Below are positions 10,784-42,488 of a stretch of 64,000 nucleotides of DNA, piece after piece. Location of the stretch: the NCBI GenBank assembly GCA_050949525.1, contig JBMNFW010000001.1, forward strand, positions 143,890 to 207,889. The letters are read 5' to 3'. This DNA comes from Patescibacteria group bacterium (lineage in GTDB: Bacteria; Patescibacteriota; Patescibacteriia; Patescibacteriales; UBA12465). The notes under the pieces were generated by a model that had not been told where the DNA came from, searched no databases, and saw only the letters and a list, made by a program, of their open reading frames with translations. The position numbers were made by a program, and so were the translations under genes. Numbering within the stretch: position 1 is the stretch's first letter; each line of letters starts with the position of its first letter.

Positions 10784-11167
10784 GGGGATGATTTTTGGGT
10801 TCGATAATAAGAGTTTTTTAAATATTCAAAATGTGTTGAATAATCACAAAAAAATATTCAAAAAATAAGTGTAAAAAATACATTTAAGAAAGCTGCTTTC
10901 TCTTGGAAAGTTCCAGCTTTCGCTCCTGTTGTTGCTTAATAATAGCTTCAACCATCGGCCTGGTGAGGTCTCTATAGCCAGTTCCCGGTGTCAATTATAG
11001 AGATAGATTTTAAGGGTGTTGTCCCTTTAAAATTGAAAGATTAGACAGCTCGTTATTATCTCATTTAGCTTAATTTTAGAGATAATAATTAAATATTTAA
11101 TTAAGCTATTTTTGTAAATGTATTTAAAAAAGCTTGTTAGACACGGGTTCAATTCCCGTCATCTCCA
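10784..11167 (+). ncRNA. ssrA: tmRNA (SsrA), one-piece
   Basis: The 5' GGGGAUG pairs with the 3' CAUCUCC, including the G3.U alanine identity pair. T-arm CGGGTTCAATTCCCG; discriminator A at 11167; CCA not encoded. The internal tag frame is most likely 10892-10936 (AAFSWKVPAFAPVVA), closed by TAA TAA TAG at 10937-10945. It starts 1 nt after the smpB stop. Confidence 0.9.
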
Positions 11168-11182
11168 CAAAATAAAAAATAA

Positions 11183-11266
11183 GCCGCGGTGGCGGAATTG
11201 GTAGACGCGCTGGACTTAAAATCCAGTGATAGCAATATCTTGGGAGTTCGATTCTCCCCCGCGGCA
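11183..11266 (+). tRNA. tRNA-Leu (anticodon UAA)
   Basis: Acceptor GCCGCGG/CCGCGGC, anticodon loop CTTAAAA, long variable arm, T-loop TTCGATT, discriminator A. CCA not encoded. Confidence 0.93.
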
Positions 11267-11277
11267 CTTATTTTTTT

Positions 11278-11349
11278 GCGGGTATGGTATAGTGGCTATT
11301 ATGTAACCTTGCCAAGGTTGAGACACGAGTTCGATTCTCGTTACCCGCT
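11278..11349 (+). tRNA. tRNA-Gly (anticodon GCC)
   Basis: Acceptor GCGGGTA/TACCCGC, anticodon stem-loop TAACC-TTGCCAA-GGTTG, T-loop TTCGATT. CCA not encoded. Confidence 0.93.
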
Positions 11350-14936: not shown

Positions 14937-16766
14937 ATGACAAATAAACAGAAAAATGATTCAAAAAAAACACCTCTAGTTAGTAAGTATAAAAGTCGGA
15001 CTAAGTTTCCTACTAAAAGAACTAGGGTGGTAGAAAAAGATAATTTGAAAATAAAAAATCAATATTATATTGGCCAGCTTCGAGTTATAGTCTTGGGTGG
15101 ATTAGAAGAAGTAGGTCGAAATATGACTGTGATTGAATATGAAAAAGAAATAATCATAATTGATATGGGCTTACAATTTCCTGAAGAAGATATGCCCGGA
15201 ATTGATTATATTATTCCCAACGTTACTTATTTAGAAGATAAAATTGATCGAATTAAAGCTGTTTTCATTACTCATGGTCATTATGACCATATTGGCGGTA
15301 TTCCTCATATTATGGGTAAAATTGGTAACCCACCAATGTTTATGGGTAAAATGACAGCCGGATTGGTGCAAAAAAGGATATTAGATTTTAAGAAAGCGCC
15401 GACTTTAAAGATAAAAGAAATTACTGAAAATGATCGGGTTAAGATTTCAGATAAAATTCAAGTAGAATTTTTACGGGTTAATCATTCTATTCCTGATTGT
15501 TTTGCTATTATTGTTAACACTCCTCTCGGTAAGGTAGTTCATACTGGTGATTTTAAAATTGATTTTTCACCAGTTAATGATAAGCCAGCTGATTTAAATC
15601 GTATCGCTCAATTAGGAGCCGAAAATATATTACTTCTGATGTCGGATTCAACTGATGCTACTCATCCTGGTTATCAAATTTCTGAATCAGCTATTGGAGA
15701 TGAAATGGGAAAATTATTTGAAAAAGCTTCAGGACGAATTATCATTGGTACTTTTGCTTCTCAACTTAGTCGGGTTCAAAAGATTTTTGATTTAGCTAAA
15801 AAATATGGCCGTCGAGTTTCTCTTCAGGGGCGTAGCATGAATGATAACGTTGATGTGGCTCATAAGATTGGTTATTTGAAATTTGATCCTAGAATTATTG
15901 TTGAGGACAAGGATTTAAATCGCTTAAGAGACGATAAAGTTATTATTATTGGTACTGGTGCTCAGGGAGAGAGTAATGCTTTTTTATCTCGAGTAGTTAA
16001 TGATGAGCATCGCGTAGTGCGTTTAAAGCCTGGAGATACTGTTATTTTTTCCTCTTCAGTTATTCCTGGCAATGAAAGAAGTATTCAGAATTTAATGGAC
16101 ATGGTGGTTCGACAGGGAGCTAAAGTTATTAATTATAAGATGATGGATATTCATGCTGGTGGACATGCTAAGGCTGAAGATTTAAAGCTTATGATGCGTT
16201 TAGTTAAGCCTCAATATTTTATGCCCATCGAAGCTAACCATTATATGCTTCAAGCTCATGCTGAGTTAGCTGAACAGGTGGGAATTCCATCGGAAAATAT
16301 TTTTGTGGCTGATAATGGTCAGGTAGTTAAATTTAAAAAAGGACAAAAAATTATTGATGGTAAAAAATATGAAGTATTAGGAGAATTAAGTCAAGAAAAA
16401 GTTCCGACTGATTATGTAATGGTTGATGGTTTAGGAGTCGGAGATGTATCTAATATTGTTTTAAGAGATCGTCGTGTTATGGCTGAAGATGGAATGATAG
16501 TAGTGATTGTGACAATTGATTCTAAGACCGGAGATTTAATTGGTAGTCCTGATTTAATTTCTCGTGGTTTTATTTATATGAAAGAAAATCGAGATTTGAT
16601 TGAAAAAACCAGATCTAGGGTTAGAGCAATTGTTCGCGATAAAAACCCTAATACTCCAGCTGATGATGATTATATAAAGAATAAAATTAGGAACGAAGTT
16701 GGTCAATTTCTCTTTAATGCTACCAAGAGAAGGCCGATGGTTTTGCCGGTAGTTATTAAAGTTTAG
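14937..16766 (+). CDS. rnj: ribonuclease J (beta-CASP metallo-beta-lactamase RNase)
   Basis: Contains HGHYDHIGG and the beta-CASP and C-terminal domains. I prefer ATG 14937 (MTNKQKND...) over the track's TTG at 14925, which lies inside the upstream hairpin. Confidence 0.92.
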   Translation: MTNKQKNDSKKTPLVSKYKSRTKFPTKRTRVVEKDNLKIKNQYYIGQLRVIVLGGLEEVGRNMTVIEYEKEIIIIDMGLQFPEEDMPGIDYIIPNVTYLEDKIDRIKAVFITHGHYDHIGGIPHIMGKIGNPPMFMGKMTAGLVQKRILDFKKAPTLKIKEITENDRVKISDKIQVEFLRVNHSIPDCFAIIVNTPLGKVVHTGDFKIDFSPVNDKPADLNRIAQLGAENILLLMSDSTDATHPGYQISESAIGDEMGKLFEKASGRIIIGTFASQLSRVQKIFDLAKKYGRRVSLQGRSMNDNVDVAHKIGYLKFDPRIIVEDKDLNRLRDDKVIIIGTGAQGESNAFLSRVVNDEHRVVRLKPGDTVIFSSSVIPGNERSIQNLMDMVVRQGAKVINYKMMDIHAGGHAKAEDLKLMMRLVKPQYFMPIEANHYMLQAHAELAEQVGIPSENIFVADNGQVVKFKKGQKIIDGKKYEVLGELSQEKVPTDYVMVDGLGVGDVSNIVLRDRRVMAEDGMIVVIVTIDSKTGDLIGSPDLISRGFIYMKENRDLIEKTRSRVRAIVRDKNPNTPADDDYIKNKIRNEVGQFLFNATKRRPMVLPVVIKV

Positions 16767-16768
16767 CT

Positions 16769-17857
16769 CTGAATAAGTTCAGATACATTTTGGAAAATAA
16801 AAAGCCCAAAATGTATGCAGATAAAGTTTAAGTACTATAATTGTCCCGGATTTGGTACATTATATAATGATGCAATTAAGCAAAAATATATGATTACCAA
16901 AGAAGCTAGACAAAGACTCAAAATATTAGAATTTTGAAAGCAATATGGCCTTCAAGCCACTACTGATGCCTTTGGGGTTAAAAAATCTACCCTATACAAT
17001 TGACAAAAAATATTTAGAGAAGGGGGTGGCAAGATAGAAGCTCTCAATCCTAAATCCCAAGCTAGGATTAACAAGAATAAAAGAGAAATACATCCTCTGA
17101 TATTAAAAGAGATTAGACGTTTAAGACTAGAGATTTGTCCTAATATGGGTAAAACTAAAGTTAAAAAATTTTTAGATAAATTTTGTGAAATTAATAATTT
17201 ACCAATATACTCAGAATCAAAGATAGGTAGAATTATTAAAGATAAAGATATATATCATCATAGACAGAAAATATCTCATTTTGGTAAGATTAAAAAAATT
17301 AAAAAAACTAAAAAGAAAAGAAAACCTAAGGAATTACAAGTAAATAATCCTGGGGATTTAATAGAGATAGATACTGTTGTTAGATTTCACAATGGATTAA
17401 AGAGATATATTATTACCGCTGTTGATACTTTTAGCCGAACAGCTTTCGCTTATGCCTATAACAGAATTAGTAGCTCTAATGCTAAAGATTTTTTTAAAAA
17501 ATTAGAAGAAGTCATGCCCTTTAATATTAAGGCTGTTCAGACTGATAATGGTTTAGAATTCCATCTCTATTTTAAAAAATACTTAGAAGAGAGAAAAATT
17601 GAGCATTATTTCAATTATCCAGGTAGACCATACAAACAGGGTCATATTGAGAAGTTTAATAGGACTATTCAAGAAGAATTCATTGATTGGAGTGGTGAAA
17701 AATACTTTGATAATTTAGATGATTTTAATAATTTGTTAATTGATTGGCTTCTTTGGTATAATACCGATAGACCACATTGGAGCCTTGAATTAGTATCTCC
17801 GATGAATTATTTGGTTAATAATAATTTTTTTTCCAAAATGACGTGGACTAATACAAG
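16769..17857 (+). mobile_element. IS481-like insertion sequence, copy 1 (1089 bp, transposase interrupted)
   Basis: Collinear with 20140-21228, differing at only 3 positions that I could find: C/T at 16848, TGG->TGA at 16935-16937, and TGG->TGA at 17001-17003. Imperfect terminal inverted repeats share an inner CATTTTGGAAAA. Flanked by CT on both sides. Confidence 0.9.
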
Positions 17858-17864
17858 CTCTTGA
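16815..17864 (+). pseudogene. IS481-like DDE transposase with two in-frame TGA codons
   Basis: Same frame as the intact copy at 20186-21244. Codons 41 and 63 (Trp in copy 2) are TGA here. The largest remaining ORF is 17145-17864 (catalytic core only). Confidence 0.85.
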
Positions 17865-17889
17865 CTTTATTTGAAAAATGTGCTAGCTT
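17861..17889 (+). promoter_or_regulatory. candidate promoter abutting the IS right end (TTGACT, 17 nt spacer, TGcTAGCTT)
   Basis: TTGACT at 17861-17866, 17-nt spacer, TG at 17881-17882, TAGCTT at 17884-17889. Confidence 0.35.
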
Positions 17890-17917
17890 TAAAATAGTAC
17901 ATTTAAATATATTAGAT

Positions 17918-18172
17918 ATGATTAAAAAAATGAAAGGAGATCTCCTTCATCCTTTCATTATGTTGATTAGTAAAAAGGAATTAAATGATATACTAGAGGG
18001 ATTGAAGGAGATCTTAGAGGAGGGAATTACAACTAATGAGTTGTACCCTCCAGAAAAGTTTTTGAAACACTCCTCTATAGTGGCGGAGGAGTATATTAGA
18101 TTCTTTGAAGAGAAGAATCGAAGCCACGACCCAGGAAAGCTCATTAGCCTGGGCTTACCTTCAAAAAATTAA
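17918..18172 (+). CDS. hypothetical protein (84 aa from ATG 17918)
   Basis: ORF-track frame 17861-18172. The TTG at 17861 coincides with a -35-like box, so I prefer the ATG at 17918 (MIKKMKGDLLHPF...). No recognisable motif. Confidence 0.4.
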   Translation: MIKKMKGDLLHPFIMLISKKELNDILEGLKEILEEGITTNELYPPEKFLKHSSIVAEEYIRFFEEKNRSHDPGKLISLGLPSKN

Positions 18173-18201
18173 CGCTTTCAACAATGGGAGCGTTTTTTTA
18201 A

Positions 18202-18231
18202 TTTACAAGACTTATTTTTTTTTGGTATAAT
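18202..18231 (+). promoter_or_regulatory. candidate promoter (TTTACA, 18 nt spacer, TGgTATAAT)
   Basis: TTTACA at 18202-18207 and TATAAT at 18226-18231, with TG two nt upstream of the -10. Confidence 0.4.
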
Positions 18232-18251
18232 AAAAGAGGTATATTTTGCTA

Positions 18252-18280
18252 TTGACTAAAATTATATTTTATGATATAAT
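18252..18280 (+). promoter_or_regulatory. candidate promoter (TTGACT, 17 nt spacer, TGaTATAAT)
   Basis: TTGACT at 18252-18257 and TATAAT at 18275-18280, with extended -10 TG at 18272-18273. Confidence 0.55.
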
Positions 18281-18371
18281 TAGATCGTAGTAAGCTTTTA
18301 AGGCTTCGATCTAAAAATTAACGTAATAATTAATTTTAAAAACTCTTTAAATTAATTATTTATAAAAACAT

Positions 18372-19211
18372 ATGTCATTTGAAAAAAAATTAAAAACTGA
18401 AGCTCCAGTTGAGGGGCAAGAAAAACAAGAGCTGAGTCCAGAAGAAAAAAGTCAAAAAGAAGAGGCTCGACATGAGGCTATTCAAAGTGCTCAAGCTTCA
18501 TTACAAGAATCTGCAGAACAGGATTATCAAGTTAGTCAGAAAAAGGTTAAAGAGTCTAGGGCACAAATTTATGATCTTGAAAATGATAAGGTTAAGATTA
18601 AAGTTGAAATTAGTGAAAAAAATCCAGAGAGTGGTTTATTGAATTTAGGTATTGATAAAGAGGATATTAGTGCTCTAAAAAAAGAATTAAGCGGATTAAA
18701 TCAAAATCAAGCTTATAACAAGATTAATATGTTCTTAGCTGCTAGTATTGCCGAGTCTTTATCACAGAATAAGGTAGAGGGAGCAAATTTTGTTCAACAG
18801 AAGATTTATAATCAAATTAATCTTCTTAAGGATAATGAGAATATTAAGAGCGGAAAGCATCTTATAAACTTAGAGAAGTTTATTAATTATAATAATGAAA
18901 AAGGAAGCGGAGTTTATATTGAAGGACTTAGTTCTAAATTAGAAAAAATTAGTGGTTATAAAAAGAATCGCAAAGGGTTAGCCAGAATCTTTGGTTCAAC
19001 ACAAATTAATTTTGAGGAAATGGTTCAAGATTTATCTAAAGCTCTTGGTGTTGATAATAGTAAGTTAATTGAGAATGTAAAAACTGGTAAAGAGCCAGCT
19101 TTAAGTTCTGAGACCGCTAAGAGATATGCTGAACGAACTCATTCCGGAAGTTATATGACTACACGTTCAGAAATTAAACGACCTAATTATTTAGTTGAAA
19201 GTTCAAACTAA
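18372..19211 (+). CDS. hypothetical protein, Glu/Gln/Lys-rich N-terminus
   Basis: 279-aa ORF with no TM segment and no motif I recognise. It has its own promoters upstream and a terminator downstream. Confidence 0.6.
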   Translation: MSFEKKLKTEAPVEGQEKQELSPEEKSQKEEARHEAIQSAQASLQESAEQDYQVSQKKVKESRAQIYDLENDKVKIKVEISEKNPESGLLNLGIDKEDISALKKELSGLNQNQAYNKINMFLAASIAESLSQNKVEGANFVQQKIYNQINLLKDNENIKSGKHLINLEKFINYNNEKGSGVYIEGLSSKLEKISGYKKNRKGLARIFGSTQINFEEMVQDLSKALGVDNSKLIENVKTGKEPALSSETAKRYAERTHSGSYMTTRSEIKRPNYLVESSN

Positions 19212-19234
19212 AGATATATAGTCAAGAATAAAAA

Positions 19235-19261
19235 ACAGGAAATTTAATTTCCTGTTTTTTT
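19235..19261. terminator. bidirectional terminator shared by convergent genes
   Basis: ACAGGAAA (19235-19242) pairs with TTTCCTGT (19248-19255). An A-run lies upstream and a T-run downstream. It overlaps the last codons of the minus-strand gene. Confidence 0.7.
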
Positions 19262-20092
19262 ATTTCTAGAACCTTTATTAATTAAGAATCCAATTATTAT
19301 TCCCGTAATCATAAATCCAAGGGCTGGAAATATTTCTTGGCCTTCTAAGTATTGTGAGGGCCAAATTTTTTTTAAGGATCCTAGCATGAATCCAATTAGA
19401 GTTATTAGAGTTATTTGATAGTATTTTTTTAGTAAAAAATTTAAAACTCGACTAAAAGATAATAATCCAATAATACATCCTAAGACGAAAATCAGGATAG
19501 GGAGAATATTATTTAGTGGATTATGTAAAAGTGATAACATGAAATCATATTTTCCTAATATTATCAGAATAAAAGAACCGCTAATTCCAGGTAATATCAT
19601 AGCGCAAATAGCTATAGCTCCACTGATAAAAATGTTGAAATAAGTGTGAGAGCTTTCTATCGGCTGAAGTTTTGCGATCAGAAAGGCTAAAATAAAACCT
19701 ATTAGAAAGGTGATAGCTCCGTTAATTTTAAACTTTCCTCTTGGAAAAAGAAGAATACTTGAAACTAAAATTAATCCAATAAAGAAACTATAAAGATAGC
19801 CGGGATAATTACTTAAAGCCCAACTAATAACTCGAGCTAGGCTAATTAGAGCACTAGAAATTCCTAAAATTAAGGGAATAATAAACTTTAAATCTAGGGG
19901 CTTAAAAGCGTCTTTTATTTTTAATTGGATTATTTTTTTTAAAAAATCTAGATTTATTAATTTTATTTGTTCTAAAATCTTAGAATAGATATTTAAAATT
20001 AAAGCTAGTGTTCCACCAGAAATACCAGGAATAATATCAACTGTTCCCATAGCTAATCCTTGTAGAAAAGTTTTTATAATATTTTTTTTCAT
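19244..20092 (-). CDS. DUF368-family polytopic membrane protein (family proposed as polyprenyl-phosphate transporter)
   Basis: 282 aa with the duplicated signature IIPGISGGTLALILNIY and ILPGISGSFILIILGKY, typical of DUF368. Confidence 0.75.
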   Translation of the reverse strand: MKKNIIKTFLQGLAMGTVDIIPGISGGTLALILNIYSKILEQIKLINLDFLKKIIQLKIKDAFKPLDLKFIIPLILGISSALISLARVISWALSNYPGYLYSFFIGLILVSSILLFPRGKFKINGAITFLIGFILAFLIAKLQPIESSHTYFNIFISGAIAICAMILPGISGSFILIILGKYDFMLSLLHNPLNNILPILIFVLGCIIGLLSFSRVLNFLLKKYYQITLITLIGFMLGSLKKIWPSQYLEGQEIFPALGFMITGIIIGFLINKGSRNKKTGN

Positions 20093-20139
20093 ATTTCCTA
20101 TTATAGATATTATTTAAATTTATGTCTACTCCCTTAGGG

Positions 20140-21228
20140 CTGAATAAGTTCAGATACATTTTGGAAAATAAAAAGCCCAAAATGTATGCAGATAAAGTTT
20201 AAGTACTATAATTGTCCTGGATTTGGTACATTATATAATGATGCAATTAAGCAAAAATATATGATTACCAAAGAAGCTAGACAAAGACTCAAAATATTAG
20301 AATTTTGGAAGCAATATGGCCTTCAAGCCACTACTGATGCCTTTGGGGTTAAAAAATCTACCCTATACAATTGGCAAAAAATATTTAGAGAAGGGGGTGG
20401 CAAGATAGAAGCTCTCAATCCTAAATCCCAAGCTAGGATTAACAAGAATAAAAGAGAAATACATCCTCTGATATTAAAAGAGATTAGACGTTTAAGACTA
20501 GAGATTTGTCCTAATATGGGTAAAACTAAAGTTAAAAAATTTTTAGATAAATTTTGTGAAATTAATAATTTACCAATATACTCAGAATCAAAGATAGGTA
20601 GAATTATTAAAGATAAAGATATATATCATCATAGACAGAAAATATCTCATTTTGGTAAGATTAAAAAAATTAAAAAAACTAAAAAGAAAAGAAAACCTAA
20701 GGAATTACAAGTAAATAATCCTGGGGATTTAATAGAGATAGATACTGTTGTTAGATTTCACAATGGATTAAAGAGATATATTATTACCGCTGTTGATACT
20801 TTTAGCCGAACAGCTTTCGCTTATGCCTATAACAGAATTAGTAGCTCTAATGCTAAAGATTTTTTTAAAAAATTAGAAGAAGTCATGCCCTTTAATATTA
20901 AGGCTGTTCAGACTGATAATGGTTTAGAATTCCATCTCTATTTTAAAAAATACTTAGAAGAGAGAAAAATTGAGCATTATTTCAATTATCCAGGTAGACC
21001 ATACAAACAGGGTCATATTGAGAAGTTTAATAGGACTATTCAAGAAGAATTCATTGATTGGAGTGGTGAAAAATACTTTGATAATTTAGATGATTTTAAT
21101 AATTTGTTAATTGATTGGCTTCTTTGGTATAATACCGATAGACCACATTGGAGCCTTGAATTAGTATCTCCGATGAATTATTTGGTTAATAATAATTTTT
21201 TTTCCAAAATGACGTGGACTAATACAAG
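20140..21228 (+). mobile_element. IS481-like insertion sequence, copy 2 (1089 bp, intact)
   Basis: Near-identical to 16769-17857. Flanked by GG on both sides. The left end is CTGAATAAGTTCAGATACATTTTGGAAAA; the right end is TTTTCCAAAATGACGTGGACTAATACAAG. Confidence 0.9.
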
Positions 21229-21244
21229 GGCTTGTATTTTTTAA
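20186..21244 (+). CDS. IS481-like DDE (rve) transposase
   Basis: 352 aa. N-terminal HTH-like region (ITKEARQRLKILEFWKQYG...STLYNWQK). DDE triad candidates lie in LIEIDTV, VQTDNGLEF and HIEKFNRTIQEEF. The ORF has no stop inside the IS; the stop comes from flanking DNA (21242-21244). Confidence 0.88.
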   Translation: MQIKFKYYNCPGFGTLYNDAIKQKYMITKEARQRLKILEFWKQYGLQATTDAFGVKKSTLYNWQKIFREGGGKIEALNPKSQARINKNKREIHPLILKEIRRLRLEICPNMGKTKVKKFLDKFCEINNLPIYSESKIGRIIKDKDIYHHRQKISHFGKIKKIKKTKKKRKPKELQVNNPGDLIEIDTVVRFHNGLKRYIITAVDTFSRTAFAYAYNRISSSNAKDFFKKLEEVMPFNIKAVQTDNGLEFHLYFKKYLEERKIEHYFNYPGRPYKQGHIEKFNRTIQEEFIDWSGEKYFDNLDDFNNLLIDWLLWYNTDRPHWSLELVSPMNYLVNNNFFSKMTWTNTRACIF

Positions 21245-21259
21245 TTTATTTGTTATAAT
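21232..21259 (+). promoter_or_regulatory. candidate rpsA promoter (TTGTAT, 16 nt spacer, TGtTATAAT) abutting the IS right end
   Basis: TTGTAT at 21232-21237, TG at 21251-21252, TATAAT at 21254-21259. Confidence 0.45.
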
Positions 21260-21378
21260 CTTGATAAAATAAATAGCCTTTTATAAATTCTTAGATTTAA
21301 GGCGTCTAAGAGCTTTCTACTTGTTTTTACAGGAGAGGGTTAAATGAATCTTTTTTTATTTTAAAAAAGAAAATTAAC

Positions 21379-22557
21379 ATGAGTGAAGATAAAAAAACTA
21401 ACCATACCTTAGAGGTTTTGTTAGAACAAGATAAAAATCAAATTCCTCAAAAAGATGATGTCGTGCTTGGTAAAGTTATTTCAGCTTCTAAATCTGAAGT
21501 TAGACTTGATATTGACGGCGTCTTTATTGGAATAGTCCGAGGTCTGGAATTATATTTTGAGGCAGAAGAGTTTGCTAATTTAAAGCCAGGAGATGAAGTT
21601 GAGGCTACTGTTATTGATGAAGAGAATGAGCGAGGTGAATTAGAGCTATCTTTTAAACGAGCTGGACAAGAAAAAGCTTGGAGTAAATTAGAGCAAGCTT
21701 TTAAAGATAAGGAAATTATTAAAGTTAGAGTTACTGAGGCTAATAAGGGTGGGCTTTTAGTTCGTTATTATCAAATCGGTGGTTTCTTACCTGTATCTCA
21801 ATTATCACCAGAAAATTATCCTCGAGTTAGTGGGGGAGATAAAACTAAAATTTTAGAAAAATTAAAATCATTTATTGGGCAAGATATTGAGGTTAATGTT
21901 ATTAACTTGGGGCAAGATTCTGATAAAATTATTTTTAGTGAAAAAGATGTTTGGAATAAGAGACAAAAACATATTATTGATAAATACAAGATTGGTATGG
22001 TGGTTGATGGTAAAATTTCCGCTGTTACTAATTTTGGTGTATTTATTAGTTTTGGTGAAGGTATGGAAGGTTTAATTCATATTTCAGAATTAGCTTGGCA
22101 AAGAATTGATTCTCCAGAAAAATTATATCAAGTTGGGGATAGTATTAAAGCTGAAATAGTAAATTTAGATAATAATAAAATATTTTTAAGTGCTAAGAAG
22201 ATTATTGAAGATCCTTGGAAAAAGGCTGTGGAAAAATACAAGGTTGGTGATATTGTTAAGGGGCAGATTTTAAAAATTAATCCATTTGGTCTTTTTGTGA
22301 AACTAGATGAGGAGATTCATGGTTTAGCTCATATTACTCAGCTCGGTATAAATATTAAAGAAAAGATTAATAGTTTCTTTAATGTTGGCGATGAATTAGA
22401 TTTTGAAATTTTATCAATTTCTCCTAGTGATCATCGTTTAGGTTTAAAGTTGTATAAAGAAGACAAAAAGAAGACTAAGAAAAAGGAAGAAAAAGAGGAG
22501 AAGAAAGATGAGAAAAAAAGTGAAAAAAAAGATAAAAAAGAGAAGCAAGAGGATTAA
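21379..22557 (+). CDS. rpsA: 30S ribosomal protein S1 (four S1 domains) with Lys/Glu-rich tail
   Basis: 392 aa with repeated S1-domain signatures (GKVISASKSEVRLDI..., VDGKISAVTNFGVFISFGEGMEGLIHISEL, VKGQILKINPFGLFVKL...GLAHITQL). The C-terminal tail is KKKTKKKEEKEEKKDEKKSEKKDKKEKQED. Confidence 0.9.
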   Translation: MSEDKKTNHTLEVLLEQDKNQIPQKDDVVLGKVISASKSEVRLDIDGVFIGIVRGLELYFEAEEFANLKPGDEVEATVIDEENERGELELSFKRAGQEKAWSKLEQAFKDKEIIKVRVTEANKGGLLVRYYQIGGFLPVSQLSPENYPRVSGGDKTKILEKLKSFIGQDIEVNVINLGQDSDKIIFSEKDVWNKRQKHIIDKYKIGMVVDGKISAVTNFGVFISFGEGMEGLIHISELAWQRIDSPEKLYQVGDSIKAEIVNLDNNKIFLSAKKIIEDPWKKAVEKYKVGDIVKGQILKINPFGLFVKLDEEIHGLAHITQLGINIKEKINSFFNVGDELDFEILSISPSDHRLGLKLYKEDKKKTKKKEEKEEKKDEKKSEKKDKKEKQED

Positions 22558-22568
22558 ATCCTCTTTTT
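22548..22568 (+). terminator. weak terminator overlapping the rpsA stop
   Basis: AGAGGAT (22548-22554), loop TAA, ATCCTCT (22558-22564), then T-run. Confidence 0.4.
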
Positions 22569-22634
22569 CTCTTTATTTGTTTTTAAATTTAAAGTGTTAT
22601 ATAATGAAGATAGTTTAAGAATTAATGGTTTTTT

Positions 22635-24449
22635 ATGAAAGGAATTTTTAAAAATTTTTTAGTATTTTTCTTTATTTTTTTAGTGATAGCTACTTTATTT
22701 ACTGCGTTAAGCGATAAGGCAGTAAGTAATGAAAATATTGGAATTAATGATTTTATATCTTTAGTTAAAGACGAGCAAATTTCCGACATTACGGTTAGTG
22801 GTAATAAAATTAATCTTGTTTTGTTATCAGGTGATAAAAAGTTTGCTAAGAAAGAAGTTGGTGAATCCTTTTCTTCTTTAGTTAATAATTATTCTATTGA
22901 TCCAGATAAATTATCGAAAATTAATATTAAGATTGAGGAAAATGATGGCTTTGGAGCTTTTATGTTATCTCTGCTTCCTTTTTTAATTCCTTTTATATTA
23001 ATTGTTGTTTTTCTTTATTTCATGACTAGAAGTGTTTCGGGGGCTAACTCTAAAGCTATGATGTTTGGTCAATCTCAAGCTCGAGAATTTGATAGTAAGC
23101 AGAAAAATAAAGTTAGCTTTAAAGATGTGGCGGGAGCTAAAGAGGCTAAGCAAGAATTAAGTGAGATAGTGGATTTTTTAAGATTTCCTAAAAAATTCCT
23201 TGATTTGGGGGCTCGAATTCCTAAAGGGGTGTTATTATTAGGTAGTCCGGGAACTGGAAAAACTTTAATAGCTAAGGCAGTCGCTGGTGAAGCTCAAGTT
23301 CCTTTTTTTAGTATTTCCGGTTCAGAGTTTGTGGAAATGTTTGTTGGTGTTGGAGCTTCTCGAGTCCGATCTTTATTTCAAAGAGCTAAAAAAAATTCTC
23401 CTTGTATAGTTTTTATTGATGAGATTGATGCTGTTGGTCGTCGTCGCGGAGCTGGACTAGGTGGTTCGCATGATGAACGAGAGCAAACTTTGAATCAGAT
23501 TTTAGTTGAGATGGATGGTTTTGATCCTAGTACTAATATTATTGTTATTGCGGCTACTAATAGGCCGGATGTTTTAGATCCAGCACTACTTCGCCCAGGT
23601 CGCTTTGATCGTCAGGTGGTTTTAGATTTACCTGATTTAAAGGATCGAGAAGAAATTTTAGCCGTTCATGCTAGAAAAAAACCGATAGCTAAAGATGTTG
23701 ATCTTAAGAGTATTGCCGAAAGAACTCCAGGATTTAGTGGTGCTGATCTAGCTAATGTTTTAAATGAGGCAGCTATTTTAGCAGCTCGGGAGAATAAGAA
23801 GATTATTGAATTACCAGAATTATTTGAAGCAATTGAAAAGGTTTTAATGGGGCCTGAGAGAAAAAGTCGAGTTATTACCGATGAGGAGAAAAAAATTACT
23901 GCTTATCATGAAGCTGGACATGCTTTGGTAGCTCATTTTTCTCCTAATACCGATCCAGTTCATAAAATTTCAATTATTGCTCGTGGTCAAGCTGGCGGTT
24001 ATACTTTAAAACTACCTTCTTTTGATAAGAGAATGTATTCCAAAAATTATTTCTTAGATGAAATCGCTGTTTTATTAGCCGGACATTTAGCTGAGAAGAA
24101 AATTTTTGGTGAAGTAACTACTGGAGCTACTTCTGATCTAAGGCGAGCAACTAATATTGCTAGAAAATTAATTACTGATTATGGAATGAGTGAAAAATTA
24201 GGTCCTCGAACTTTTGGTGAAAAAGAAGATATGATATTTTTAGGTCGAGAAATTCATGAACAAAGAGATTATAGTGAAAAGGTGGCTGAATTAATTGATG
24301 AAGAAATTTCTCGTTTTATTTCTGAAGGTGAGCTCCGAGCTCAACGTATTTTAGATGAAAAGTCCGATAAATTAGAGGCTATAGTTAAGGTTTTATTGGA
24401 AAAAGAAACTATTGAAAAGGAAGAGTTTGAAGAAATTATGGCTGGTTAG
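22635..24449 (+). CDS. ftsH: ATP-dependent zinc metalloprotease FtsH
   Basis: 604 aa with two N-terminal TM helices. Walker A GSPGTGKT, Walker [13 protein letters not shown] region, zinc site HEAGHAL. Confidence 0.96.
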
Positions 24450-27167: not shown

Positions 27168-27189
27168 AAAATCAAAAATGTGAGAAAAT

Positions 27190-27190
<1 letters not shown>
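27168..27190 (+). other. 5' arm of the 23S processing stem
   Basis: AAAATCAAAAATGTGAGAAAATC is complementary to 30188-30210 (22 Watson-Crick pairs plus one G.U). Confidence 0.8.
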
Positions 27191-30187
<2,997 letters not shown>

Positions 30188-30192
<5 letters not shown>

Positions 30193-30210
30193 TCTCACAT
30201 TTTTGGTTTT
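30188..30210 (+). other. 3' arm of the 23S processing stem
   Basis: GATTTTCTCACATTTTTGGTTTT pairs with 27168-27190. Confidence 0.8.
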
Positions 30211-30230
30211 AATAAATATTAGATTATATA

Positions 30231-30348
<118 letters not shown>

Positions 30349-30493: not shown

Positions 30494-32057
<1,564 letters not shown>

Positions 32058-37363: not shown

Positions 37364-37852
37364 TTAATGAATAAGTTTTAGGTTAGCTTTTCCGTTTTCA
37401 GAATCCCAAATAGCGAAACTCGGGCGATAGAAAAGACCACCTAAGGTTCCCGGATTAATTAGTATAGTTTTATTCTTTTTAGAAATCCAAGGTTTATGAG
37501 TATGGCCATAGAAAATGAAATCAAGATCAGGGTTTTCTTTTAAAAGAGATTTGATAAATATTGGTTCATGACAAACTGCTATTTTAAATTTACCCAGATT
37601 AAAACTTGAGGAGCGACCTAAATTATTGATATGTTTATAATTTTCTAAGTCTGAAAAGTTATAAATATCAGCATTGCCAGAGATTATGAATATTTCTTTA
37701 TTAAAATTTTTTATTAAAGTTTTTAGAGTATCTTGATTACCTAAGTCACCACAAGAAATTATTTTTTCGATTTTTTCTTTGGCTATAGCCTGAAAGAAGC
37801 GATGAAGGTTACTGATATTATCGTGGAGATCAGAGATAATAGCTATTTTCAT
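37364..37852 (-). CDS. YfcE/MJ0936-family metallophosphoesterase
   Basis: 162 aa. Motifs ISDLHDN, CGDLG, SGNAD and YGHTHKP. Confidence 0.85.
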   Translation of the reverse strand: MKIAIISDLHDNISNLHRFFQAIAKEKIEKIISCGDLGNQDTLKTLIKNFNKEIFIISGNADIYNFSDLENYKHINNLGRSSSFNLGKFKIAVCHEPIFIKSLLKENPDLDFIFYGHTHKPWISKKNKTILINPGTLGGLFYRPSFAIWDSENGKANLKLIH

Positions 37853-37855
37853 GGT

Positions 37856-38431
37856 TTAAATATTTTTTAGGCTAATTTCGTAGTCCATTTGCTCGATTTT
37901 TTTTAAATTATTACGAGCTTGATCATATTTAGTTCTGAGAGGTCCAGTAATATCAAAATCAATTAACTCATTCAATATCTCGGTAATTAGTTTTTTTATT
38001 CTTTTAACTTCATTAAAATTTTTTTCAATGCTTTCGTTAATTGCTAGACGAAGTAATTCTCCGGTAAAATCAGATAAGCCTCCGATATATGATTCGATGG
38101 GGAGTTTTTTTATTTCTTTAATTTTTTCAATTTTCCCCTTATGGATATAATTGAAGAATAGTTTAGCTTCCACATACTCTTCTAGGGCCGCCATAAAAGA
38201 GCCTTCTTCTGTTAATCGATAGTAAGTAAATTTTTTAATTAGTTTTTGGATTGATTTTTCATTATCATTTAGGAGTTTTTGTGCTACATCTAGTTCTTGG
38301 CGATGAAGAGCAAAAATAGTTTTCTTGGAATTATTTAATATAATATTAGAAGCACTAATAATTTGCCTTCTTTCGATGGTCTTATTTAAATATTCTTTCT
38401 TTAATGATTTGATAAATGTTTTGTTTAGCAT
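37856..38431 (-). CDS. translin-family protein
   Basis: 191 aa, all-helical. The motif ESYIGGLSDFTGELLRLAINE resembles the translin signature (..Y..G..DLTGEL.R). Its ATG overlaps the upstream ATPase stop by 1 nt (TAATG). Confidence 0.6.
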   Translation of the reverse strand: MLNKTFIKSLKKEYLNKTIERRQIISASNIILNNSKKTIFALHRQELDVAQKLLNDNEKSIQKLIKKFTYYRLTEEGSFMAALEEYVEAKLFFNYIHKGKIEKIKEIKKLPIESYIGGLSDFTGELLRLAINESIEKNFNEVKRIKKLITEILNELIDFDITGPLRTKYDQARNNLKKIEQMDYEISLKNI

Positions 38432-41400
38432 TATTTTGTATTTTTAATAACTTCTTCAATAGTAGTTAGTCCTTGAAGAGCTTTTAAGATGCCATCTTGA
38501 AGCATGGTAATCATTCCATCTTCAATAGCAATATTTTCAATTTCTTGGTCACTTAAATTTTCTTTAAATATCTTTTCTTGGCTAGCTGGACTTAAGGTCA
38601 TAATTTCATAAAGACCTATTCGGCCTCGGTATCCAATATGATTACATTTGTCACAACCTTTACCACGATAGAATTTAAATTCATTAGGGAAAACAAAATT
38701 TTTGTTTTTTATTTTTCCTAATATTTCTTTTATTTCATTTAAGACTTCCGGTGATAAAATGACTTCTTCTTTTTGACAATCAGGACAGATTTTTCTAACC
38801 AATCTTTGACCAATGGAGCATTCTAAAGCATTGGCTAACATTGATTTTTCAACTCCCAAGCCCATGAAGCGAGAGACAGCGCTAGCAGCGCTATTAGCAT
38901 GGATAGTTGATAATACTAAATGTCCTGTTAGAGAAGCTTCGATTGCTGTTTTGGCTGTTTCTTGATCACGAATTTCACCTAACATCATAACATTAGGGTT
39001 TTGTCTTAATAATGATTTCATAGCTACGGCAAAAGTATAGCCTTCAGCCGGATTAACTTGAGTTTGAATAATGCCTTCCATTTGATATTCAATTGGGTCT
39101 TCAATGGTAATAATTTTTACATCCGGAGTATTTAGTTGTTTTATAATACTATAAAGAGTGGTGGTTTTACCACTACCAGTTGGACCAGTGGTTATAATTA
39201 TACCTTTAGTTTTTTGAATAGAGTTCTGTAGTATCGGAAGAGAATATTGAGATAATCCTAGTTTGTCTAAATTTAATTCTCCTTCACTACCAGTCAAGAG
39301 CCTTAAGACCGCTGTTTCACCAAAACCACCAGAAATGATTGAGACTCGACAATCAATTTTTTTATTTTCTAGAGAGATAGCAAAGCGTCCATCTAAAGTA
39401 GCTCGCTTTATATTAGTGGTAAATCCAGCTAAAATTTTAATCTCAGCTAATAATGGTAGAAAAATATCTTTTGATAGTTCAAACATATCGTGTAATATTC
39501 CATCTATTCTAAATCTAATTTTAACATTTTCGGCTGTGGGTTCGATATGTAAGTCTCCAGCCTTAGATTCAATAGCTAATGATAAAAGTAATACTATAAT
39601 TTCATTAGTTGGTATTTCTTTAATAGTCTTAGCCACTAAAATCTTATCATTTATCATACTTCGAGCTTTGTCTAATTCTTTAACTCCTATTTCTATACCC
39701 TGGCTAATGGTTTGAGATATAGCTACTTTGTACAATTCTTCAACATAATCAAAATTTCCAATAACTCGATAAACCTCTTCTAGACTAGTTTGATGTTCTA
39801 AAACTTTTAGAACTCCGTCTTGTAACATAGTGACCATACCATTTTCAATGGCCTGTTGCATGATTTTAAAAGAAGGGGCATTGTCCATGGTTAATTCTTT
39901 TAACTTTTCATCCATGGTAAATATTTCATAAATACCCAAACGTCCTTTATATCCAATACCAGAACATTTTTCACAACCAGGTCCGGCTTTGTAGATAGTG
40001 GGTAGAATGGTTGGAACTTTGATATTAGCTTTTGGTGAAATAACAGCCAATATTTTTTTTAATAATAGTTCTTCATCTTCTTTTAAGTAGTGAACTTCCC
40101 GACAATGGGGGCATAATTTTCTTAATAATCGTTGTCCAATAACTGCATTAATAGCTGGAACAAGGAAATAGGGTTTAATACCCATATCAATTAAGCGGGG
40201 GAGAACACCTGAAGCGTCATTAGTGTGTAGAGTTGATAGAACTAAATGACCAGTTAAACTAGCCTGAACACTAATTTCAGCTGTTTCGAGGTCACGGATT
40301 TCTCCCACCATTACAATATCAGGATCTTGTCTTAGTATTGATCTTAAACCAGAAGCAAAGGTATAGCCTCTTTTAGGTTCAACTTGACTTTGACTAATAC
40401 CTTCTAATTGATATTCAATCGGATCCTCTAAGGTGATTATTTTAGTACCAGGTTGATTAAGTCGATTTAAAATCGCATAAAGAGTGGTGGTTTTACCACT
40501 ACCAGTTGGACCAGTGGTTAAAACTAAACCATTGGGTTTACTAATTTCTTTTTTTAGGATTTGATAAGCTTCAGGTCTTAAACCTAAATCATCAAAAGAG
40601 AGGCCAATTGAGCTGGACTTCAGAAGTCTCATTACGACACTCTCTCCAAAGGCGGTTGGTAAAAAAGAGGATCGAACATCAACTCTTTCATTGGAAAGAA
40701 AAATTGAGTAACGTCCATCTTGAGGCTTGTCCTCAATATTTATTTTTACTCCGGCTAATATTTTCATGCGAGAAATTATTTTTCTCCATTTATTTTTTTC
40801 GATAGTAGCTGCTTCTTGAAGAACACCGTCAATTCGAAGTCGAACAATTATACCTCTTTCTTCAGCCTCAATATGAATATCACTGGCTCCGGTTTTTAAG
40901 GCGGTAGCCAAAATTAAAGTTACTACATCGGTAACATTAACTTCATTGATTGTGTGATTCAAGCTTTTATAATCAGTAATAATTTCTTTAAATCTTTCTA
41001 AGTCTTCCGGACTAATTTCTACTCCCTTAATAATTTTTTTGAATTTAGGAATTAGATCATAAACTGATAAAGCATGTTTAAGACTAATAGGGGAGATTAA
41101 ATAAAGACTACTTTTGGTAAAGTATTCTTTATTTATTTCATCAATTATTTTATTTACTTGAGGATTATTGGGATTAGTGGTAGCAAAGCGGATATTTTCT
41201 CCATCGTAATAAAAGCAGACTAATTTATTTAAATTAGCTTCTTCTTCAGCGATTAAAACAAGGGCTTCATGACTAATGGGAAAACCAAAAAGATTAACAT
41301 AAGGAAGTCCAAGAGATTGAGCTTGGGCTTGAGTTTTTCTTTCGATTTCCTTATTTTTTATTTCCTCTTGTTTGGCCGCTAGTTTGTAGGCGGCACTATC

Positions 41401-41451
41401 TTGATCATCACTTTTTTTTAGTAAGCTGGAAATTGAATCAAATCCACTCAT
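38431..41451 (-). CDS. tandem-fused double PilB/GspE-type secretion ATPase
   Basis: 1006 aa: a GspE-N-like N-terminus followed by two complete ATPase cores. Each core has Walker A (TTGPTGSGKTTTLY, twice), EDPIEYQ, Walker B (VMVGEIRD / MMLGEIRD), a His box (LTGHLVLSTLHTN / LTGHLVLSTIHAN) and a tetra-Cys cluster (CPHC..CEKC / CPDC..CDKC). Confidence 0.9.
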   Translation of the reverse strand: MSGFDSISSLLKKSDDQDSAAYKLAAKQEEIKNKEIERKTQAQAQSLGLPYVNLFGFPISHEALVLIAEEEANLNKLVCFYYDGENIRFATTNPNNPQVNKIIDEINKEYFTKSSLYLISPISLKHALSVYDLIPKFKKIIKGVEISPEDLERFKEIITDYKSLNHTINEVNVTDVVTLILATALKTGASDIHIEAEERGIIVRLRIDGVLQEAATIEKNKWRKIISRMKILAGVKINIEDKPQDGRYSIFLSNERVDVRSSFLPTAFGESVVMRLLKSSSIGLSFDDLGLRPEAYQILKKEISKPNGLVLTTGPTGSGKTTTLYAILNRLNQPGTKIITLEDPIEYQLEGISQSQVEPKRGYTFASGLRSILRQDPDIVMVGEIRDLETAEISVQASLTGHLVLSTLHTNDASGVLPRLIDMGIKPYFLVPAINAVIGQRLLRKLCPHCREVHYLKEDEELLLKKILAVISPKANIKVPTILPTIYKAGPGCEKCSGIGYKGRLGIYEIFTMDEKLKELTMDNAPSFKIMQQAIENGMVTMLQDGVLKVLEHQTSLEEVYRVIGNFDYVEELYKVAISQTISQGIEIGVKELDKARSMINDKILVAKTIKEIPTNEIIVLLLSLAIESKAGDLHIEPTAENVKIRFRIDGILHDMFELSKDIFLPLLAEIKILAGFTTNIKRATLDGRFAISLENKKIDCRVSIISGGFGETAVLRLLTGSEGELNLDKLGLSQYSLPILQNSIQKTKGIIITTGPTGSGKTTTLYSIIKQLNTPDVKIITIEDPIEYQMEGIIQTQVNPAEGYTFAVAMKSLLRQNPNVMMLGEIRDQETAKTAIEASLTGHLVLSTIHANSAASAVSRFMGLGVEKSMLANALECSIGQRLVRKICPDCQKEEVILSPEVLNEIKEILGKIKNKNFVFPNEFKFYRGKGCDKCNHIGYRGRIGLYEIMTLSPASQEKIFKENLSDQEIENIAIEDGMITMLQDGILKALQGLTTIEEVIKNTK

Positions 41452-41465
41452 GATTTTCTGATTTT

Positions 41466-42488
41466 TTAATTAAATACTCTTTCTAATTTTGCTTTTTGTT
41501 TTTTATCTTTTATATTCAAGAATAAACCAGTCCAAGCGCTAGTTTGAAAAGTATTTAAAAGAGATCCACTTAGGATATTAAAGATAATAACTGCTAAAGC
41601 TCCGATAATGGCAAAGAAAACAAAGAAAAAGAAAGGAGCTGAAACTAAGGTAGTTGATAAGGCTAGGGCTATGAAGACGAAGATTAAAGCAATTGAAGCT
41701 AGGGAAATTAGGAGTATCGCGACAAAGTTAATTAGGAAAAGAATTAAAGCCATTTCTAAACTTATTAACCAGTTATCAGAAAATAGCTTCCAAGCCGATT
41801 TGATAGCTGGACCAAATTTCTTTTTTTCTAAAACTACATAAGCAATACTGTATTTAGCTATGAAGGATAGAAGTAGGCATAATAATGTAAAGATAATGAA
41901 GATTAATCCGTAGACTAAAGTATAGGCTATTTTGTTTTTTATAATAATAAATAGAAAGAAAAAACTAGAGATTAAGAAAACCAAATTAATTATTATGGTT
42001 ATTATTAAGTTTAACCAGAAAACGGGCCAAAATCTTTTGTTACTATTTTTTATAGCTTTTTTAATAGTTATTTTCCCCTTTTTTTCTTTAATAATATCTT
42101 TAGTAGAATTGATTAAACTAATTTGTGAAACAGTGGAAAGCCAAGCAAAGAAAACAGCAAAACCGATGATTATCAATACTACTAATATTAAAAGCCACAA
42201 TGTTTTTGGTTCAGTTTTTAGAAGCTCAAAGAAGTTAATCCAAGCGCTTTTAGAAAAAATACCAGTATCAAGAAACATTTTAAAATTGGTTAGTTCCTTA
42301 ATACTAGGTCCGGGACTGATGATTTTAGAGGCAACTTTGAGTTCAGCTGAAAAACTAACTAGAGAAGCAAAAAATCCAAAAAACCATAAGATTTTATTCT
42401 TCCAAGAAATTTTCCAAGCTTGTTTTAGAGTGTTTCGATATGATAGCATAAACTTTTGAAGCCCTGATGGGCTATTAATTTTTAACAT
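41466..42488 (-). CDS. polytopic membrane protein, unknown function
   Basis: Multiple hydrophobic helices. I chose the start at ATG 42486-42488 (MLKINSPSGLQKF...), because the longer ORF to 42620 would run into the divergent tyrS start. Confidence 0.6.
   Translation of the reverse strand: MLKINSPSGLQKFMLSYRNTLKQAWKISWKNKILWFFGFFASLVSFSAELKVASKIISPGPSIKELTNFKMFLDTGIFSKSAWINFFELLKTEPKTLWLLILVVLIIIGFAVFFAWLSTVSQISLINSTKDIIKEKKGKITIKKAIKNSNKRFWPVFWLNLIITIIINLVFLISSFFFLFIIIKNKIAYTLVYGLIFIIFTLLCLLLSFIAKYSIAYVVLEKKKFGPAIKSAWKLFSDNWLISLEMALILFLINFVAILLISLASIALIFVFIALALSTTLVSAPFFFFVFFAIIGALAVIIFNILSGSLLNTFQTSAWTGLFLNIKDKKQKAKLERVFN

Follow-up and report, generated by a model that had tools for sequence, protein, structure and literature searches.

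How can a motor whose studied relatives are rings of six identical subunits be built from a chain that carries two motor units at once? This question is raised by a gene in a 64,000-nucleotide (nt) stretch of the genome of a Patescibacteria group bacterium (assembly GCA_050949525.1, contig JBMNFW010000001.1, positions 143,890 to 207,889 of the forward strand), referred to below as the window, within which its features are numbered. PilB/GspE motors have so far been studied as homohexamers. The coordination of their six sites and the coupling of a six-fold motor to a dimeric or trimeric platform are both debated (PMC5424180, PMC10790770). The gene (38431-41451, minus strand) starts with ATG, has its stop codon at 38431-38433 and no internal stop, and encodes a tandem-fused PilB/GspE-type ATPase of 1006 amino acids (aa). 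The explanation favored here, which as a whole is considered reasonably probable, is that this is a genuine tandem-duplicated PilB-type ATPase that assembles as a trimer, i.e. as a six-unit alternating ring, and drives a PilC/GspF-type platform.

The presence of two complete secretion-ATPase units in one uninterrupted 1006-aa open reading frame (ORF), as claimed in the original prediction, is agreed on by the ORF itself, Pfam, NCBIfam and a hidden Markov model (HMM) of the unit. Each chain is organized as a single putative N1 domain (N1D), a first unit made of an N2 domain (N2D) and a C-terminal domain (CTD), a 42-aa linker and a second N2D-CTD unit, all encoded on the minus strand. The GSPII/MshEN-like N1 region (about residues 1-140; 41032-41451), the counterpart of which anchors PilB/GspE ATPases to PilM/GspL, occurs once per chain; it has a weak match to PF05157 over residues 47-110 (20.6 bits, below the cut-off of 23.1; E 4.5e-4), was aligned with PilB models starting at residue 13 and is folded in the AlphaFold2 (AF2) model of the protein. 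In unit 1, the N2D spans residues 169-288 (40588-40947), with the arginines of its RLRIDG and DGR motifs, and the CTD residues 289-568 (39748-40587). The linker (residues 569-610; 39622-39747), recognized by alignment and modelled with a low to moderate predicted local distance difference test (pLDDT) score, lies where the junction between the units had been estimated to be. It is followed by the unit 2 N2D (residues 611-732; 39256-39621), with the arginines of RFRIDG and DGR, and the unit 2 CTD (residues 733-1006; 38434-39255). The N2Ds were delimited by the unit HMM, their motifs and the orthologue alignment, and the CTDs, each with Walker A, Asp box, Walker B, His box and a cluster of four cysteines (Cys4), by motifs and alignment. 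The T2SSE profile PF00437 matches the protein in two stretches (768 bits, gathering cut-off 24.9, E 1.3e-231), and the unit HMM, built from both halves, gives two full-length and non-overlapping matches, residues 169-568 and 611-1006, as had been expected of a true double unit.

All the motifs listed at the outset are present once per unit and at equivalent positions. The N2D motif reads GASDIHIE in unit 1 (residues 188-195) and AGDLHIEP in unit 2 (631-638), and each unit also contains a Walker A motif, TTGPTGSGKTTTLY (312-325 and 754-767), an Asp box, EDPIEYQ (342-348 and 784-790), a Walker B motif (VMVGEIRD, 380-387, and MMLGEIRD, 822-829), a His box (399-411 and 841-853) and the tetra-Cys cluster (CPHC..CEKC, 447-496, and CPDC..CDKC, 889-936). 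The units of the AF2 model superpose on the PilB structures 5TSH and 5ZFR with TM scores of 0.85-0.89. Foldseek searches of the PDB and sequence searches recovered single-unit matches only, and no solved structure spanning two units. An ORF of 150 aa runs antisense within the ATPase gene (39263-39715, plus strand); it resembles a shadow ORF and shows no sign of being a gene.

Judging from profile scores and motifs, both units are of the PilB/GspE (extension) type and not of the PilT type. The NCBIfam GspE and PilB models each match the fused protein in two stretches. Scored alone, unit 1 reaches 492 bits with GspE, 482 with PilB and 178.8 with PilT, and unit 2 reaches 431, 392 and 166.6 bits, respectively; both units miss the pilT_fam cut-off of 319.1. 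Each unit alone also falls below the equivalog cut-offs of PilB (TIGR02538, 675.65) and GspE (TIGR02533, 630.25), and the whole protein exceeds them (866 and 916 bits) because the scores of its two units sum. The same summation accounts for the 486 bits of the whole protein with the ComGA model NF041000, whose equivalog cut-off of 300 is missed by the units individually (247 and 242 bits). PilT-type retraction ATPases are not known to have the tetra-Cys cluster.

The possibility that the gene is an artefact, with adjacent paralogues misjoined by a sequencing or assembly error or one unit copied during assembly, was considered from the start and can be set aside with near certainty, as nothing was found in its favor. 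The two units share 44-45% protein identity and their DNA is alignable (~72%) over the conserved core only, which excludes an assembly duplication. Also, the identical 1006-aa protein occurs on four contigs, the three listed coming from one ENA and two NCBI assemblies, so that it recurs in at least three independent assemblies, and an orthologue (P0089) sits in the closed 977-kb genome CP066698.1. Fused orthologues proved to be numerous: more than 100 full-length clusters share 63-81% identity, the same length and a conserved linker. Among the best 120 protein matches all but two fragments have about 1003-1018 aa, with 63-81% identity and, in nearly all cases, 98-100% coverage. Three apparent cases in which the two units are separate genes were rejected: P0144 starts at a contig end, L032 is cut by one, and L039 is interrupted by a gap of 200 Ns. 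Recoding does not explain the interruption of L039, which looks the same under genetic codes 11, 25 and 4. An apparent half protein of 558 aa (P0211) is encoded on a 2.6-kb contig, with its stop 28 nt before the contig end.

A library of 1.84 billion representatives, clustered at 50% identity, gave 16,083 matches at E<=1e-30, and the unit HMM detected two full units in 14 of the best 150 listed representatives. Among the GTDB species representatives, a two-unit ORF occurs at about 32 loci, which are Falkowbacteria-, Moranbacteria- and Paceibacteria-like. The main family is made up of clade 1, throughout which the gene block surrounding the ATPase in the window is conserved (61-81% identity), and clade 2 (42-47% identity), whose members carry Moranbacteria, Paceibacterota and Parcubacteria labels and lie in a different gene block. 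Several metagenome-assembled genome records bearing close orthologues (L010, L018, L027-L029, L031, L038 and L039) are titled 'uncultured Gammaproteobacteria', 'Bdellovibrionales' or 'Saccharibacteria'; these titles, given to co-assembly bins, look unreliable, and some of the loci show the Falkowbacteria-like synteny of clade 1. The family is plainly a PilB/GspE relative, and its architecture is present in databases without a name of its own. Orthologues are called 'GspE/PulE family protein' or 'PilB', and a GenBank member of 1009 aa from the Parcubacteria group, KKU82539.1, is named 'General secretory pathway protein E'. The claim that the architecture was undescribed therefore stands in part only: no description of a tandem PilB/GspE protein was found in the literature searched, which did not extend to subscription-only papers, yet such proteins have been deposited under generic names.

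Both units appear to have remained under constraint as enzymes. Walker A, Asp box, Walker B, His box, the N2D arginines (R-x-R-x-DG and DGR) and all eight cysteines are invariant in 37 orthologues, which agrees with the initial view that both units look catalytically competent. The catalytic motifs are also kept in nearly all of the 54 two-unit entries, the four cysteines being complete in unit 1 of all 54 and in unit 2 of 53. Within this set no main-family member has lost the Walker A lysine or the Walker B glutamate, and the sole loss of the lysine occurs in unit 1 of an unrelated protein (P0139, described below). The two units differ in pace, with unit 2 evolving faster: among clade 1 orthologues the N2D, CTD core and C-terminal part are conserved at 78%, 85% and 72% in unit 1 and at 63%, 77% and 57% in unit 2. 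Between the units, the N2Ds are the most diverged part (35% identity versus 57% for the CTD core), and fixed unit-specific differences include RQNP in unit 2 for RQDP in unit 1, and HAN for HTN.

In a neighbor-joining (NJ) tree, all unit 1 and unit 2 sequences of the main family group, with 87% bootstrap support, with a set of single-unit proteins (L008/P0136, L040, P0143, P0146, P0148, P0157 and P0173) and with two further double proteins, P0127 and P0130. Canonical Patescibacteria PilBs fall outside this family. One of them is encoded at a Ca. Moraniibacteriota locus (L035) in which the fused gene lies 5 kb away from a canonical pilus cluster on the opposite strand (16036-22877, minus strand), which consists of genes for PilO, PilB (592 aa), a stand-alone receiver-domain protein, PilT (362 aa), PilC and three small pilins. 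This cluster has its own PilB, and therefore the fused ATPase is an extra paralogue there and not the canonical PilB. The fused ATPase is thus a member of an orphan family of PilB paralogues in Patescibacteria, separate from the PilB of pilus operons.

The linker is homologous between clades 1 and 2 (G-x-DY-x2-LY...RG-I-x-I), arguing for a single duplication of about residues 127-568 for the whole main family, and it also resembles the stretch that precedes the unit 1 N2D. Two of the single-unit relatives occur in similar gene contexts. The 567-aa protein of L040 shows 55% identity with unit 1, 46% with unit 2 and, in its N-terminal part, 38%, and is followed by translin, metallophosphoesterase and UvrA genes. 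Upstream of the single-unit ATPase of L008 lies a homologue (29% identity, E 8e-26) of the membrane protein that also precedes the fused gene in the window. Outside the main family, the units of P0127, P0130 and P0139 are 55, 73 and 44% identical to each other, pair with their own partner at bootstrap values of 100, 100 and 93 and are joined by linkers unrelated to that of the main family; a tandem fusion thus came about independently at least three more times. P0127 is encoded at L006 (10001-12985). P0130 (995 aa) comes from a 7-kb NCBI contig, and the 73% identity of its units indicates a recent duplication. P0139 (1047 aa; L007, 10001-13144) has an N-terminal T2SSF-like (platform) domain ahead of its two T2SSE units, the first of which is without the Walker A lysine (GPTGSGTTT), and belongs to a genome outside the Candidate Phyla Radiation (CPR), where its neighbors encode sulfatases, an ECF sigma factor and BatA-like proteins.

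In the assembly proposed here, three chains would form one planar pseudo-hexameric ring in which units 1 and 2 alternate, with each N2D packed, as usual, on the CTD of the neighboring unit. In PilB this N2D(n)-CTD(n+1) packing buries about 1,600 A2 and defines six packing units (PMC5424180). The fusion would halve the number of N1 anchoring domains, giving three per ring and not six, and the ring would drive a PilC/GspF-type platform, proposed to be a trimer in which each chain faces the six N2Ds with two different cytoplasmic domains. PulF has been modelled and cross-linked as a trimer, every chain of which has two cytoplasmic domains that each bind a single N2D of the hexameric ATPase (PMC10790770), and the platform protein is itself an ancient internal duplication (PMC6668835). 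Covalent linkage would fix a 1:1 alternation and leave each unit free to specialize for one of two non-equivalent positions. ATP turnover in PilB is C2-symmetric, with opposite sites sharing their state (PMC5424180); under a C2 rotary cycle of this kind every unit 1 would stand opposite a unit 2, which fits both sites staying active. Two classes of N2D facing two classes of platform domain would likewise fit the N2Ds being the most diverged part of the units and yet conserved among orthologues. Also, the recurrent independent fusions and the single-unit relatives found in the same synteny suggest that an ordinary six-unit ring can readily take in a fused chain. In its most specific form, the idea that these proteins are natural covalent heterodimeric motors, with diverged and active PilB units alternating in three chains, matched 1:1 to two platform-domain types and evolved repeatedly (in the Patescibacteria family, P0127, P0130 and the non-CPR T2SSF-T2SSE-T2SSE protein), is held here with somewhat less than even confidence.

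Several observations weigh against the proposed trimeric ring and its platform, or against the simple history outlined for it. The AF2 monomer models give a mean pLDDT of 78.6 with a predicted TM score (pTM) of 0.49 for the full-length chain, and a pTM of 0.62 for a construct of CTD1, linker and N2D2. At 31 of the about 32 fused loci, no PilC, PilM, pilin or PilT gene was found within 10 kb, and the link of the ATPase to a pilus machine is one of homology only. Moreover, L040 and L008 are nearer to unit 1 of clade 1 than unit 1 of clade 2 is, implying either that unit 2 was lost later in these lineages, in which case it would be dispensable, or that a single fusion is too simple a history; within the family, NJ support is low, too low to decide between the two.

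The structural alternative to be taken most seriously, unlikely as it is judged to be, is a stacked arrangement in which the units of six chains form a dodecamer made of two rings, one of unit 1 lying on one of unit 2, as in ClpB, p97/NSF, KaiC or the multi-domain EccC. Two complete modules per chain are the hallmark of such machines, each unit has its own N2D and all motifs and could form a ring by itself, and AF2 returned no confident side-by-side arrangement. However, PilB-type motors work on the platform through their N2D face and pore and thread no substrate (PMC5424180, PMC10790770), which would leave the distal ring without an obvious partner. The N2D of unit 2, conserved in orthologues and diverged from that of unit 1, also looks more like a surface turned towards a partner than like one buried between stacked rings, and the single-unit relatives in the same synteny suggest an ordinary six-unit working assembly.

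Somewhat less probable again is a division of labor in which one unit is mainly regulatory or structural, i.e. a pseudo-enzyme, and only three sites drive the motor, as happens in rings where active subunits alternate with inactive ones. The faster evolution of unit 2 and its fixed RQNP and HAN variants would be compatible with this, as would the presence of a single unit only in L040 and, in P0139, which was fused independently outside the CPR, the loss of the lysine from unit 1; the retention of the Walker A lysine, the Asp-box and Walker B glutamates, the His box and the N2D arginines in both units of essentially all main-family members speaks against it. The original prediction had suggested that an extension (PilB-like) and a retraction (PilT-like) motor might be combined in one chain. 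Two diverged units per chain could be read in this way, but the suggestion did not hold up and is considered very improbable: both units score far higher with GspE and PilB than with PilT, both have the Cys4 cluster regarded as a marker of the GspE/PilB type, unit 2 derives from a duplication within the same PilB paralogue family, and a separate PilT is encoded at L035.

Compared with known systems, each unit has the same N2D and CTD fold as PilB, GspE and PilF (G. metallireducens PilB 5TSH, V. cholerae GspE 4KSR and T. thermophilus PilF 5IT5), with which the fused ATPase shares 38-46% sequence identity, Walker A, the Asp box, an atypical Walker B, the His box, the N2D arginines, the tetra-Cys cluster and, probably, an N1-type N-terminal domain. 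These proteins have one motor module per chain, whereas the fused ATPase has two, with one N1 for both, and its gene lies outside any pilus or type II secretion system operon and in a separate paralogue family. With PilT and PilU it has in common the PilT-like ATPase superfamily and the ring architecture, differing from them by the Cys4 clusters in both units, the putative N1 domain and the per-unit scores below the 319-bit cut-off. The platform proteins PilC, GspF and TadB-TadC, which are part of the same machine, went through the same kind of change, with an internal tandem duplication (T2SSF) yielding six domains from three chains (PMC6668835, PMC10790770); these are membrane proteins and not ATPases, and their pairing with the fused ATPase is conjectural. 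Among other ring ATPases, linked ClpX has been engineered, and Rpt1-6 and Rvb1/2 form natural alternating or 'trimer-of-dimers' rings. Engineered linked Msp1 dimers form pseudohexameric trimers of dimers (PMC12793716). As in these, two modules per chain or an obligate pair would make up a ring of six units whose alternating sites can be mutated one by one, but the other proteins are AAA+ and mostly man-made, whereas the fused ATPase is natural, conserved and PilT-like (FtsK-HerA related). ClpB, p97/NSF, KaiC and EccC likewise have two or more P-loop ATPase domains per chain, but belong to other families and stack their rings around a threaded substrate, unlike PilB-type motors, which act on the platform through one face.

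The relevance of these proteins would lie mainly in the field of type IV filament motors, as a natural linked-subunit ring and as evidence on how platform and motor fit together in a 3:6 geometry. The fusion would fix a two-position alternation around the ring, which fits a trimeric, internally duplicated platform, and would permit a single site to be mutated at every second ring position without engineered linked constructs. Should the alternating covalent ring be true, it would provide direct evolutionary support for a three-fold platform working with a six-fold motor; should the rings be stacked instead, the architecture would be new for the PilB-type ATPase family. The fusion also draws attention to a family of orphan PilB paralogues in Patescibacteria that has so far gone unstudied.

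In the window, the ATPase gene is part of a tightly packed block on the minus strand, encoding in order a membrane protein, the ATPase, a translin-family protein, a metallophosphoesterase and an inositol monophosphatase (IMPase), with tyrosyl- and arginyl-tRNA synthetase and UvrA genes around it. The translin gene (37856-38431), recognized by Pfam, starts with an overlap of 1 nt with the ATPase stop codon, and the metallophosphoesterase gene (37364-37852), also recognized by Pfam, follows 3 nt later. The trio of ATPase, translin and metallophosphoesterase is found in clade 1, and the latter two genes also lie downstream of the single-unit ATPase of L040. Located 14 nt upstream of the ATPase and co-oriented with it is the gene for a polytopic membrane protein of about 327 aa (41466-42449); its listed ORF has 384 aa and begins at an upstream TTG, and its homologues begin at M58. 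In clade 1 and L008 such a gene immediately precedes that of the ATPase, and the gaps measure 1-21 nt at all loci but L015 (92 nt). The membrane protein is a possible partner of the ATPase. It has no Pfam match, and its homologues are all hypothetical proteins from Patescibacteria only, of which a few match PF24400 or PF25231 and one is labelled 'membrane-anchored GDPDase' by JGI. Clade 2 has an upstream gene that, judged by eye from its sequence, resembles a DHH/NrnA-type phosphoesterase, and downstream genes for RuvB and a bacterial PH-domain protein. A tblastn search of the 64-kb window with one unit returned the two units only, and no second T2SSE gene; no prepilin motif was detected in the window by regular expression. 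Pfam scans of ten neighboring genes found translin, metallophosphoesterase, IMPase, aminoacyl-tRNA synthetases and UvrA, and neither PilC nor PilM.

As to what such a motor would be used for, the episymbiotic lifestyle of Patescibacteria depends on type IV pili. The likeliest candidate outputs are extension of a type IV pilus as an alternative motor, working with the PilC and pilins that the canonical PilB also uses, or a DNA-uptake pilus. A role outside the canonical pilus, together with the co-transcribed membrane protein and/or as a ComGA-like competence motor for DNA uptake or processing and nucleotide scavenging, is possible though doubtful. The gene is an orphan located outside pilus operons, has the membrane protein directly upstream in clade 1 and L008 and is accompanied by genes related to nucleic acids (translin, metallophosphoesterase and UvrA in clade 1, the DHH/NrnA-like gene and RuvB in clade 2). 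In addition, a dependence of CPR bacteria on pili and competence genes has been proposed (PMC6744442). However, gene neighborhoods are weak evidence in small streamlined genomes, where neighbors are mostly housekeeping genes, and shared ones may simply have been inherited from a common ancestor. Clade 2 and L040 have no gene for the membrane protein upstream of the ATPase, and neither ComEC nor ComEA was seen near the gene.

Elsewhere in the window, the rRNA genes (23S, 27182-30198; 5S, 30233-30346; 16S, 30494-32055; all on the plus strand) are permuted with respect to the usual 16S-23S-5S order, and account for a bump in GC content at 28-32 kb. Also on the plus strand, a tmRNA gene (10784-11170) is immediately followed by two tRNA genes (10784-11349 for the whole group).

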